Shown one piece after another: positions 25,190 through 27,496 of a stretch of 32,000 nucleotides of DNA. Position 1 is the first letter of the stretch. Every line of letters begins with the position of its first letter. The position numbers were made by a program, and so were the translations under genes. The notes below the pieces were generated by a model. The model was not told where the DNA came from, ran no database searches, and worked only from the letters and a program-made list of their open reading frames with translations. This stretch comes from Candidatus Babelota bacterium (lineage in GTDB: Bacteria; Babelota; Babeliae; Babelales; Vermiphilaceae), in the NCBI GenBank assembly GCA_039809905.1, contig JBDHVY010000001.1:240001-272000 (forward strand). Reading direction: 5' to 3'.

Positions 25190-27496
25190 ATGCGCGATTC
25201 TTTTAATACCTTTTTACAAAACAACCTGAATCCTTCTCAACAAAAAGCAGTACACCATGAAGCAGGAGCAGTTCTTGTTGTTGCTGGTGCTGGATCAGGA
25301 AAGACACGCGTTATTACCGCACGCATTACTAATCTTATTATAAATAGAAATATTCCTGCATCTTCAATTGTCGCTTTGACCTTCACCAATAAAGCTGCAA
25401 CAGAAATGAAAGAACGTATTGCATCATTTTTAGGCCATCATAGTGACTTGCCTTTTGTAGGAACATTCCACTCTTATTGCGTACAATTACTCAAAAAATA
25501 TCAAGACCATCTTCCTCATCCTTTTTTTTCAATTTTGGATAGCGATGATAAACAAAAAATGATTCAGAGTATTTTGCAGCGCAATGGATTACATAAACAA
25601 TTTACGGCAAAAAATGTTGCGCATATGATTTCACAAATGAAAAATCATATCGATGAAAAAACACAACCGGCAACAGAATATCTTTCTCATCCGTTGCTCA
25701 CTGATGTTTATAATGCTTACGAAACAGAAAAACGAGCATCAAAATGCCTTGATTTTGATGATTTATTGCTCGAAACATTGCGTTTACTGCAAAAAAACAG
25801 CGTCATTAAAACTAAGTTTCAGGAAAAAATTCGTCATATTTTAATCGATGAATATCAAGACACTAATGTGGTACAACATGAACTACTCAAAGCAATGTCT
25901 CTTTCTGATAATACCCTTTCTATTGATTCTGTCTGCGCTGTCGGCGATGAAGATCAATCGATTTATTCATGGCGTGGTGCAACGGTAACCAACATGAAAA
26001 ACTTTAAAACGGTCTTTCCTGGTACAACGGTTATCACCATTGAGCAAAATTACCGCTCTGCCCAACCAATATTGAATCTTGCCAATAGCACCATACAAAA
26101 CAATACATGCCGAACACCAAAAAATTTATGGTCAGAAAAAAAAGGTAATAATAGAATTAATAGGTTGCTATGCTTAACTGAATATCAAGAAGCACGGGCA
26201 ATTACACAATTGCTTTTGATAGCAAAAGAAAAATATGGTCTCAACAATGTTGGCATATTATATCGCGTTCATACACAATCACGGGCAATTGAAGAAGCAT
26301 TACTTAAAGAATCAATTCCTTATCGTATAATCGGTGGCATTCAATTTTATGAACGTAAAGAGATTAAAGATTTACTTGCCTATCTTAAAATTATCGCAAA
26401 CCCTTTTGATAGAACATCGTTTTTCCGCATAATTAATGTACCTACACGAGGATTGGGCGATAAATTTGAAAGCATTTTTTATACACTATGGTCTGATGAA
26501 CCTTTTGCTACCTGGCATGATATTATTAAAAAATTACAAGCAGATGGTACACTCGGCAAAGCAAAAACCACAACACTCGAAGAATTTGCGGCAATCGTAC
26601 ACAGCATTGAACCAACAACACCCACAAGCAAAGCTCTTGAAACTATTATTACTCAAACAAATTACATCAGTTACATCAAAAATAACGATGAGCCACAAGA
26701 AGCTCAGGCCCGCCTTGATAATATAAGAGAGCTTTTTGAAGCAGTAAATCACTTTGAAACACAAGGCACTACAACTATTACGCAGTTTCTTGATGAAGTT
26801 GCTCTTATGCAAGAGAAAATGAGCAAACAAAATAGAGATGCGCATGCTGTTTCTCTTATGACGTTACATGCAGCAAAAGGATTAGAATTTGATCTTGTTA
26901 TTTTACCCGGCATAGAAGAAGGAACATTACCAACAACACGTTCTTTAAATTCTCATGATGCAATTGAAGAAGAACGGCGTCTTTTTTACGTTGGCATTAC
27001 TCGAGCAAAGGAACATTTACTCATCACTACCACTAAACACCGATATTCATATGGTCAAATGGTTGATCAATTACCTTCTCCTTTTTTAGGCGAAATTCCA
27101 TCAGATTTGTTACCACATGAAGACTGTTCTTATTGGAGCATAGCTCAGGTTAATCAATTTTTTGCAAACTGGTTGGGCGGTAGTCAGCTCAAAAGACAAT
27201 CGAATATCTACGTTCCCGACTTTATGCCTTCTTCTGCTAAAGCTTCCGGCTTGGCTAAGGCTTCGTCGGACATGCCAGAAGGCGCTTCAAGAAAAATAGA
27301 ATCAAAAACTACTTCTTTTGATGTGAAAATAAAGACGGGAAGCCTGTGGAAAAAAAATCAACCAGTAAAACATGCAAAATACGGCGTAGGAACAATCCAA
27401 GACATCGAAGAGAAAACCTCCGGTGAAACACATATTACGGTGCGTTTTAGAACAGGTATAAAAAAAATTGTTGCGCAATTCCTGCAGCGATTGTAA
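25190..27496 (+). CDS. uvrD: ATP-dependent DNA helicase UvrD/PcrA family
   Basis: SF1 motifs AGAGSGKTRVITARI, TFTNKAATEMKERI, DEYQDTN, VGDEDQSIYSWRGA, QNYRS, TLHAAKGLEFD, RRLFYVGITRAK. C-terminal Tudor-like GVGTIQDIEEK...ITVRF..G.KKI. Confidence 0.92.
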   Translation: MRDSFNTFLQNNLNPSQQKAVHHEAGAVLVVAGAGSGKTRVITARITNLIINRNIPASSIVALTFTNKAATEMKERIASFLGHHSDLPFVGTFHSYCVQLLKKYQDHLPHPFFSILDSDDKQKMIQSILQRNGLHKQFTAKNVAHMISQMKNHIDEKTQPATEYLSHPLLTDVYNAYETEKRASKCLDFDDLLLETLRLLQKNSVIKTKFQEKIRHILIDEYQDTNVVQHELLKAMSLSDNTLSIDSVCAVGDEDQSIYSWRGATVTNMKNFKTVFPGTTVITIEQNYRSAQPILNLANSTIQNNTCRTPKNLWSEKKGNNRINRLLCLTEYQEARAITQLLLIAKEKYGLNNVGILYRVHTQSRAIEEALLKESIPYRIIGGIQFYERKEIKDLLAYLKIIANPFDRTSFFRIINVPTRGLGDKFESIFYTLWSDEPFATWHDIIKKLQADGTLGKAKTTTLEEFAAIVHSIEPTTPTSKALETIITQTNYISYIKNNDEPQEAQARLDNIRELFEAVNHFETQGTTTITQFLDEVALMQEKMSKQNRDAHAVSLMTLHAAKGLEFDLVILPGIEEGTLPTTRSLNSHDAIEEERRLFYVGITRAKEHLLITTTKHRYSYGQMVDQLPSPFLGEIPSDLLPHEDCSYWSIAQVNQFFANWLGGSQLKRQSNIYVPDFMPSSAKASGLAKASSDMPEGASRKIESKTTSFDVKIKTGSLWKKNQPVKHAKYGVGTIQDIEEKTSGETHITVRFRTGIKKIVAQFLQRL
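27226..27283. repeat. GC-rich palindromic repeat copy lying in frame inside the uvrD/pcrA linker (encodes ~PSSAKASGLAKASSDMPEGA)
   Basis: GCCTTCT (27226-27232) pairs with AGAAGGC (27277-27283). The internal TTGGCTAAGGCTTCGTCGGACATGCCAGAA is ~80% identical over 30 nt to TTCGCTAAAGCTTCTTCGGACACGTCAGGA at 22333-22362. Locally GC-rich compared with the rest of the gene. Confidence 0.6.

Follow-up and report, generated by a model that had tools for sequence, protein, structure and literature searches.

The gene for a UvrD/PcrA-type helicase located at 25190–27496 (forward strand) of the analysed DNA contains a short GC-rich segment, inserted in frame between the codons for the helicase core and those for the C-terminal Tudor domain. 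The DNA in question, hereafter the window, is a 32-kb stretch of a Candidatus Babelota genome; it is AT-rich (GC, 35%), and its proteins have their closest relatives in Babeliales (Dependentiae/TM6). We propose, with a probability of about 0.7, that the segment is the translated remnant of a selfish hairpin resembling repetitive extragenic palindromic (REP) sequences and Rickettsia palindromic elements (RPEs), which is tolerated in a disordered linker of the protein. The hairpin belongs to a family that is defined here, the 'FAKAS' hairpin, with a 6-bp stem around the 14-nt loop TTCGCYNARGCTWY. Judged by profile matches and anatomy, both the uvrD copy (27245–27270) and a copy in an intergenic spacer of the same window (22326–22351) are members of this family.

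The segment as first reported in an earlier note on this DNA (27226–27283, forward strand; GCCTTCTTCTGCTAAAGCTTCCGGCTTGGCTAAGGCTTCGTCGGACATGCCAGAAGGC; GC, 57%) encodes PSSAKASGLAKASSDMPEG, residues 680–698 of the helicase, and lies in frame between helicase domain 2A and the Tudor domain, just as the note had described. The peptide of the window UvrD that spans the insertion reads ASGLAKASSDMPEGASR. The segment differs in composition from the window and from the gene as a whole (GC, 36.6%), also in the GC content of third codon positions (GC3; 47% versus 26% in the gene). It comprises one complete hairpin (27245–27270, forward strand), identified by profile matching and folding, in which the stem arms TCCGGC and GTCGGA enclose the loop TTGGCTAAGGCTTC and which is read as S-G-L-A-K-A-S-S-D. 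All six stem positions are paired (one as G.T), 12 of the 14 loop positions agree with the family consensus, the unit is in phase 0, and nhmmer scores it at 18.2 bits (E = 2e-4) against the family profile, on which the spacer copy reaches 32 bits. Upstream of it, an nhmmer partial match (27236–27246) marks a half unit, TTCTGCTAAAGCT followed by the arm TCCGGC (27232–27250, forward strand). This half unit accounts for the internal duplication that had been noticed earlier and is indeed present, since GCTAAAGCTTC (27237–27247) and GCTAAGGCTTC (27254–27264) are identical at 10 of 11 positions; its layout matches that of the nested or tandem left units, with an 18-nt period, in the related uvrD loci L126, L125 and L124 and in other phyla. 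The RNA of the uvrD copy is predicted to fold with −11.4 kcal/mol in the sense orientation (canonical unit, −11.1 kcal/mol) and to take the canonical shape, i.e., stem, small internal loop, short G-C inner stem and tetraloop, while the antisense fold reaches only −4.9 kcal/mol because one stem pair is G.T.

In its general form, the unit is composed of the 6-bp stem, a 14-nt loop of the type TTC-GC-tetraloop-GC-TTC (GAA-GC-tetraloop-GC-GAA on the opposite strand) and a short 3' tail, which together make about 30 nt, or 10 codons. The tail follows the pattern CA(A/G)G, often then TC, and is most commonly CAAGTC or CAGGTC; it is CATGCC in the uvrD copy and CACGTC in the spacer copy. Two of the six reading frames of the unit contain no stop codon; the residues they specify are small and hydrophilic (S-x-F-A-K-A-S-x-D-K on one strand, L-S-A-E-A-L-A-K on the opposite one). 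A scan of eight hairpin-bearing loci against Rfam in E-value mode revealed no hairpin family, only tRNA, tmRNA and chance matches elsewhere, and a search of PubMed Central (PMC) and bioRxiv full texts with the DNA core and the encoded peptides returned no relevant match, only primers and 16S rRNA fragments. The sharing of the 10-mer GCGAAGGCGG with 16S rRNA was judged to be probably coincidental.

The likeness between the uvrD segment and the spacer element, also claimed in the note, is real, although the figure of 24 identical positions out of 30 has to be corrected to 23 in the register used there. The best local alignment joins 27245–27278 with 22326–22359 (28 of 34 identical; score, 22), no other place in the window scores above 11, and none of 200 dinucleotide-shuffled queries reached 22 (maximum, 16), so that the similarity stands against the shuffled background as well. 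The core pattern GCTAARGCTTCNKCGGAYA occurs in the window at 22335 and 27254 only (0.11 occurrences expected). The terminal inverted arms to which the note had drawn attention, GCCTTCT at 27226–27232 and AGAAGGC at 27277–27283 (forward strand), do exist and pair with each other, but they do not form the hairpin of the element: the related locus L002 retains both 7-nt arms and the 3' flank and lacks the 30-nt interior. The arms were not found in the other members of the hairpin family that were compared, and they are probably incidental rather than the termini of a repeat. They were dropped as a defining feature because the DNA fold of the whole 58-mer is not better than that of its shuffles (z = −0.6), with the same result for a 78-mer.

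The host gene encodes a protein of 768 aa, in which Pfam analysis revealed UvrD-helicase (residues 13–276; E = 1e-77), UvrD_C (282–616; E = 3e-67) and PcrA_UvrD_tudor (726–764) domains. The Tudor match (21.3 bits) is below the cutoff of 23.9 bits, yet this region aligns to residues 670–718 of PcrA and is modelled as a confident beta domain. In the alignment to Geobacillus stearothermophilus PcrA (1PJR), residues 10–642 correspond to PcrA residues 9–647, and residues 716–764 to the PcrA Tudor domain (670–718); the product is thus a UvrD/PcrA superfamily 1 (SF1) helicase with a C-terminal Tudor domain. The Tudor domain of PcrA/UvrD is established as binding RNA polymerase. Mapping onto the PcrA structure, a check suggested by the note, placed the insertion in the linker between helicase and Tudor domain, which is 73 aa long in the window protein versus about 22 aa in G. 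stearothermophilus PcrA. An AlphaFold2 (AF2) model based on a 73-sequence alignment assigned pLDDT values of 30–44 and no secondary structure to residues 668–717 (codons at 27191–27340, forward strand), with values of 65–95 in the flanks. Accordingly, the stretch from domain 2A to the Tudor domain was annotated from the model and the orthologue alignment as a disordered linker.

In order to describe the distribution of the hairpin, one genome per species (185,579 genomes; 596 Gb) was scanned with the pattern TTSGCTAARGCTTCNNCRGAYA, which leaves the left stem arm out. At least 120 loci matched, whereas about 17 would be expected by chance as calculated from the information content of the pattern. 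Among the matches listed, at least 15 phyla are represented: Pseudomonadota (among them several Bradyrhizobium isolates), Bacteroidota, Planctomycetota, Verrucomicrobiota, Kiritimatiellota, Lentisphaerota, Omnitrophota, Nitrospirota, Acidobacteriota, Spirochaetota, Bdellovibrionota (including a complete genome of B. bacteriovorus), Firestonebacteria, FCPU426, Dependentiae and many lineages of the candidate phyla radiation (CPR). The hairpin of the listed loci (L004–L123) is represented by TCCGCC-TTCGCTAAAGCTTC-GGCGGA-CAAG. Also within this listed set, the left and right arms pair at stem positions 1–6 in 97, 90, 67, 98, 100 and 82% of the cases, respectively, and at the next three positions outward in 19–28%. 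In an alignment of 119 listed copies, 91.6% of the stem cells are paired (25–47% with slid partners), and changes on both sides were observed at five of the six stem pairs, in 34 cells versus 4.4 ± 2.0 in shuffles (0 of 500 shuffles). The loop variants in the listed loci fit TTCGCYNARGCTWY, which means that the stem varies and the loop motif is kept. One locus, L019 (321–346), has a wholly different stem, CCATAC/GTATGG, around the unchanged loop TTCGCTAAAGCTTC.

None of 5,426 E. coli genomes contains the hairpin. Phages and plasmids were considered as carriers and rejected: GenBank phages gave no match, plasmids gave a partial match in Thermus only, and IMG/VR gave four matches. Two simple routes of formation were discarded as well. 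A strict nested insertion into the loop fits only 4–9 of 120 cases among the matches listed, and a fold-back origin of the right arm, copied from the left flank, conflicts with the TTC/TTC internal loop, which lacks self-complementarity. Several copies were located only a few bases away from a tRNA gene, on its 5' or 3' side (L006, L052, L057, L106, L116, L019 at 243–680 and L060 at 5943–6389); in this set, one copy lies between two tRNA genes in a metagenome-assembled genome of Dependentiae and another about 80 nt from the tmRNA gene of B. bacteriovorus.

It is conceivable, at odds somewhat short of even, that the uvrD segment is one copy of a so far undescribed pan-bacterial hairpin element with a covarying 6-bp stem and a conserved structured loop, present in at least 15 phyla. 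If this is true, the fact that it is conserved in so many phyla would point either to a mobilising or binding factor that is shared widely or to a very broad horizontal spread, and the 10-codon length together with two benign reading frames would let the unit settle in protein linkers, between genes and beside tRNA genes.

The window helicase is not the only protein decorated in this way. Among the matches listed, 18 of 121 instances lie deep inside long open reading frames (ORFs), and in 17 of these 18 the product is FAKASAD(K) or, from the opposite strand, LSAEALAK; the two remaining open frames give basic peptides, and no credible gene uses them. Ten of the ORFs were checked, and nine of them contain Pfam domains, with the hairpin either between domains or in a loop. 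The decorated families are the BcrAD/DUF2229 activase, HsdR, a ComF-like protein, class II ribonucleotide reductase, P-type ATPase, GMP synthase, RsmH, RecG and a 6-phosphogluconolactonase-like protein. The RecG of a Jorgensenbacterium (L029, 7113–8000, reverse strand) carries exactly six extra residues, AKASAD (18 nt), in comparison with the solved RecG structures of Thermotoga maritima and E. coli (1GM5 and 9WM0), after the conserved Phe of the M-x-x-F motif. The left arm of this hairpin (TCCGCC followed by TTC) coincides with codons expected to be original, which hints at either targeting by complementarity or a later compensatory change. In addition, a near-perfect hairpin was observed halfway along the coding sequence for a 1146-residue multi-pass membrane protein without Pfam match, where it is read in frame (..HTSDFAKASSDKPW..); the gene is on Babeliales contig OY969561.1 (L026, 322–3759, reverse strand).

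Comparison of 73 UvrD orthologues (53–83% identical) demonstrated that the stretch between domain 2A and the Tudor domain is hypervariable; its length ranges from 33 to 126 residues, and its sequence defies alignment. The peptide signature (F/Y/S)A(K/E)A(S/T) or KS(Y/F)GG(Q/H), the latter encoded by the same hairpin DNA one base out of phase, was detected in 17 of the 73. Its carriers are spread over the tree, with differences even between sisters (P0001/P0006, P0002/P0009 and P0005/P0007). The orthologues thus have no segment of common length and the motif is patchy, in agreement with an insertion; the insertion is not private to the window genome, however, as homologous material is present at the same uvrD site in three relatives that are about 80% identical to the window.

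The linker DNA was inspected in seven relatives besides the window. The ten hairpins found in these UvrD linkers have 5–6 of 6 stem pairs formed, share one orientation and are in phase 0. Relatives hold one to four of them each at the same linker position, and all start directly after the conserved Y-I/V-P codons. Their stems are compensatory variants, namely TCCGGC/GTCGGA in the window and TCCTTC/GAAGGA, TCCTCC/GGAGGA and CCCGCT/AGCGGA in the relatives, and these changes alter the amino acids encoded by both arms, which indicates a constraint or a common origin at the level of nucleic acid rather than of peptide. L126 contains a nested pair in which the inner stem (TCCTCC/GGAGGA) and the outer stem (CCGCC/GGCGG) are each self-complementary; L124 has three copies, L125 three full hairpins plus one copy with a longer loop, and L127 one copy together with a member of a second hairpin family. 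The window and L002 are distinguished at this site by an imprecise 30-nt indel. The near-canonical hairpins in orthologues of only 54–72% identity, within otherwise unalignable linkers, argue, as far as sequence comparison goes, against simple neutral decay of one ancient copy, and the shared boundary, orientation and phase seem to favour a common seed or targeted insertion beside resident copies. In the 43 nt that follow the element (27274–27316; PEGASRKIES..), the window and L002 share 93% identity (whole gene, 79%), despite the fact that the two are not sisters in the protein tree; this may reflect local recombination or chance.

Persistence of near-canonical hairpins in such diverged linkers could also mean that the hairpin is kept in uvrD as a selected cis element, acting either as an mRNA structure (ribosome pausing, message stability) or as a DNA site. 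We consider this unlikely. It would agree with the sense orientation of all UvrD copies, with the window stem, in which all six pairs are kept through a G.T pair that works on the sense strand only (−11.4 versus −4.9 kcal/mol), and with the covarying stem and constant loop motif across phyla. Against it, 56 of the 73 orthologues are without the motif, sisters of carriers among them, and so UvrD can do without the motif. The number and arrangement of copies also differ by lineage, L002 has lost the core from an otherwise intact gene, and elsewhere the hairpin occurs in either orientation, between genes in all arrangements and in unrelated proteins.

Evidence for insertion as a discrete unit comes from the 3' end of a TPR/GT9-like gene (window, 20579–22294), which was compared between the window and the loci L001, L002 and L003, about 80% identical to each other. 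In the window, the copy lies downstream of the stop codon and within another hairpin. Folding and profile matching delimited a composite spacer element (22304–22367, forward strand), whose outer hairpin, CCGTTCG..TTCGACGAGCTC / AGGACGAACG, carries the family hairpin TCCGAC-TTCGCTAAAGCTTC-TTCGGA (22326–22351). Exactly 30 nt (22328–22357, forward strand) are missing from the orthologous outer hairpin of L003, the junctions being ambiguous by a shared TC. The outer hairpin itself is of a third type ('FDKLR' type; CCGTTCG..TTCGACAAGCTC|AGGACGAACGG), intact in L003 (5271–5305) and interrupted in the window. In L001, a unit at 7329–7358 follows the codons for ..KHI and provides a new C-terminus, SSLAKASMNKQNQ, with a 13-residue tail. 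In L003, a 117-nt in-frame composite (5133–5249) six codons before the stop adds 39 residues (..SYAKASSFAKAEFILSFVEGADTSE..) and mixes two hairpin families. L002 has none of the three insertions and serves as the empty reference; it carries a further family copy at an unrelated spacer (21746–21777). With three different insertion points within about 60 nt, the copies appear to have been inserted independently within the clade. Across about 149 kb of Babeliales DNA, eight profile matches (E < 0.05) were obtained outside uvrD, i.e., about one per 19 kb.

These TPR-end copies bear on the possibility that no transposition took place at all, and that a few seed hairpins were spread and homogenised by slippage, template switching at quasi-palindromes and gene conversion alone, with the UvrD array growing in place. 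The common orientation, phase and left boundary (after Y-I/V-P) of all ten UvrD hairpins are what such growth would produce, half units repeat at 18- and 12-nt periods as from slippage, the window and L002 differ by an imprecise 30-nt indel, and neither the window nor the Babeliales loci examined revealed a mobilising gene. Nevertheless, the explanation seems quite improbable in view of the three insertion points and the empty reference at the TPR end, the clean 30-nt filled/empty pair inside an unrelated hairpin, the copies at conserved positions of unrelated genes (e.g., the six additional residues of RecG), and the nested copy of L126, where different inner and outer stems are each self-complementary. 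Finally, an ancestral Ala/Ser/Lys-rich low-complexity linker that resembles the spacer by chance or through selection on the peptide is largely refuted and highly improbable: such linkers often have a high content of A, S, K and P, three relatives of about 80% identity have homologous material and the fold of the 58-mer is not significant, but 0 of 200 shuffles reach the spacer similarity, GC and GC3 are outliers, the same DNA is found in non-coding positions and in other phyla, compensatory stem changes alter amino acids on both arms, and the 73 orthologues have neither length nor sequence in common.

Several observations weigh against a selfish, mobile hairpin in uvrD. The window uvrD copy is degenerate (18 bits), and the DNA of the whole segment does not fold better than shuffled sequence, as stated above. 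No convincing target-site duplication was found, only the shared TC at two inferred junctions, and neither the 32-kb window nor about 117 kb of related Babeliales loci contains a transposase or RAYT-like (REP-associated tyrosine transposase) gene. The identity of the uvrD core between relatives (74–86%, compared with 56–61% at third codon positions) is not clearly higher given its short length. Shared orientation, phase and left boundary would also fit one old insertion evolving in place. In 45 intergenic cases, orientation relative to the flanking genes (17/11/9/8) has no clear bias, and no strong preference in the orientation or position of the intergenic copies suggests a role.

The selfish-hairpin origin preferred here would involve the following steps. 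The uvrD segment would consist of one complete unit (27245–27270) plus a duplicated left half unit. A copy is thought to have landed just after the Y-I/V-P codons in the only long disordered stretch of the helicase, where it would have been tolerated because the residues added to a disordered linker are harmless to folding; since about 30 nt equal 10 codons, i.e., a multiple of three, the reading frame would have been kept upon insertion. Selection would then filter the copies for a stop-free, hydrophilic frame. Turnover at the site, by further insertion into or beside resident copies, slippage of 18-nt left and 12-nt right half units, and deletion, may have given rise to the linkers of 33–126 residues. 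The peptide would need no function and would simply make the tether that joins helicase core and Tudor domain longer. As for mobilisation, the best guess is a trans-acting enzyme for single-stranded DNA hairpins, as proposed for REP/RAYT systems, or recombination from copy to copy.

According to the literature, intragenic REPs are known to favour replication and repair genes, among them the UvrD/REP helicase gene Kole_1028; some REPs lie wholly inside ORFs and add 7–30 residues, and G.T pairs in REP stems suggest transcription (PMC3733652). CGTC REPs, to which RPE-4 and RPE-6 of Rickettsia belong, are described as having an unpaired CGTC (or TGTC/CCTC) end tag, an 8–9-bp stem that begins with A-T pairs, a 4–5-nt loop and a CCA tail, and GTAG REPs as having an unpaired GTAG tag beside a hairpin with a stem of 5–13 bp and a loop of 2–20 nt (PMC3733652). 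Like REPs, the FAKAS hairpin is short, GC-rich, mostly intergenic, often paired or clustered, sometimes placed in ORFs, and has G.T stem pairs. It differs from CGTC REPs in its 6-bp stem, 14-nt loop and lack of a CCA tail; the 3' tail CA(A/G/C)G(T)C (CATGCC in the window uvrD copy) is not accompanied by a CGTC or GTAG tag. The stem and loop lengths would fit the ranges of GTAG REPs, but the tag is not there: no GTAG was seen beside the stem in the window copies or in 121 instances among the matches listed. The peptides FAKASADK and SAEALAKA are absent from the published list of intragenic REPs (PMC3733652) and unlike VIPAKAGIQ and DSRLRGND of the CGTC type. Moreover, a REP family is usually confined to one species or genus, in contrast to the FAKAS hairpin with the same loop in at least 15 phyla. 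Membership in CGTC REPs, GTAG REPs and RPEs was rejected on anatomy and encoded peptides.

The likeness to RPEs, which Ogata et al. reportedly described in 2000, concerns behaviour: in a reduced bacterium that depends on a host, a palindromic repeat is found in intergenic positions as well as in frame within housekeeping genes, at sites where the fold is left undisturbed and the repeat is tolerated. Such intergenic and in-frame occurrence, in conserved genes at surface or linker positions, is seen here. The profile match and the disordered linker therefore bear out the proposal of the earlier note that a palindromic repeat of intergenic type sits in frame in a tolerant linker, in the manner of RPEs. 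The element does not appear to be an RPE by sequence or anatomy, though, and is assigned instead to a more widespread family of 26–30-nt hairpins; the host belongs to Dependentiae and not to Alphaproteobacteria, and by its description RPE-1 is set apart, being said to measure about 100–150 bp. Other small mobile repeats that insert in genes reportedly include Correia elements and small mobile sequences of enterobacteria. MITEs (miniature inverted-repeat transposable elements) measure 50–500 bp. They resemble the FAKAS hairpin in being non-autonomous and dispersed, in having inverted repeats and in occasional in-frame fusion to ORFs; the latter differs in its unit of about 30 nt, 6-nt arms, the lack of a clear target-site duplication and the lack of an insertion sequence in the loci examined. 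The combined or nested hairpin families at 22304–22367 of the window and 5133–5249 of L003 are reminiscent of bacterial interspersed mosaic elements (BIMEs), although, as far as can be told, the BIME components of E. coli and their binding proteins (gyrase, IHF) are not involved. The event is therefore known in kind, as a selfish palindromic repeat translated in a tolerant linker, and a REP-decorated UvrD has already been reported. By sequence, the hairpin repeat itself appears to be new, and its breadth across phyla is the unexpected part.

Other repeats were observed in the window and its relatives. The second GC-rich hairpin family (GCGCTC..CCTGAACYTGTTGAAGR..GAGCGC) is present at 4068–4137 and 27527–27558 of the window and at 7409–7480 of L001, as an inverted dimer between recR and pepP and as a single copy 30 nt after the uvrD stop codon; the UvrD linkers of L124 and L127 contain versions of it in frame. 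We take it to be similar to an AT-shifted version of the widespread 'CCTGAGCCTGTCGAAGGG' (LSLSKG/PELVEG) repeat. Behind the spacer element, a 25-nt tandem duplication (TAGGAAAAGTGCAATCTCGTTCACA / TAGGAAAAGTACAATCTCGTTCGTG) occupies 22368–22417, and a decayed copy of yet another hairpin type (CGTTCGTGGGTAGCGTGTCAAACCATACGGAC; L003, CGTTCGTGGTGAGCCTGTCGAACCATACGAAC) occupies 22410–22441. A GC-rich island unrelated to the hairpin families (9364–9460) is located in a 115-aa ORF (9220–9567) that has no Pfam match and encodes a Gly/Ala-rich product with an Asp/Arg-rich tail.

If the selfish-hairpin origin is right, the odd GC-rich stretch of uvrD is repeat-derived filler in a disordered tether and is not to be read as a functional motif, and selfish repeats inside housekeeping genes are tolerated in Dependentiae as they are in Rickettsia. 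This hairpin repeatedly adds roughly 6–10 residues to unrelated enzymes. REP-type repeats have been thought to be lineage-specific, yet this loop is kept from Bradyrhizobium to CPR bacteria while the stem covaries. If confirmed, the family would offer a tractable system for studying the movement or the retention of such hairpins, an easy means of flagging spurious ORFs and repeat-derived protein insertions in metagenomes, and a source of linker-length variation in proteins.

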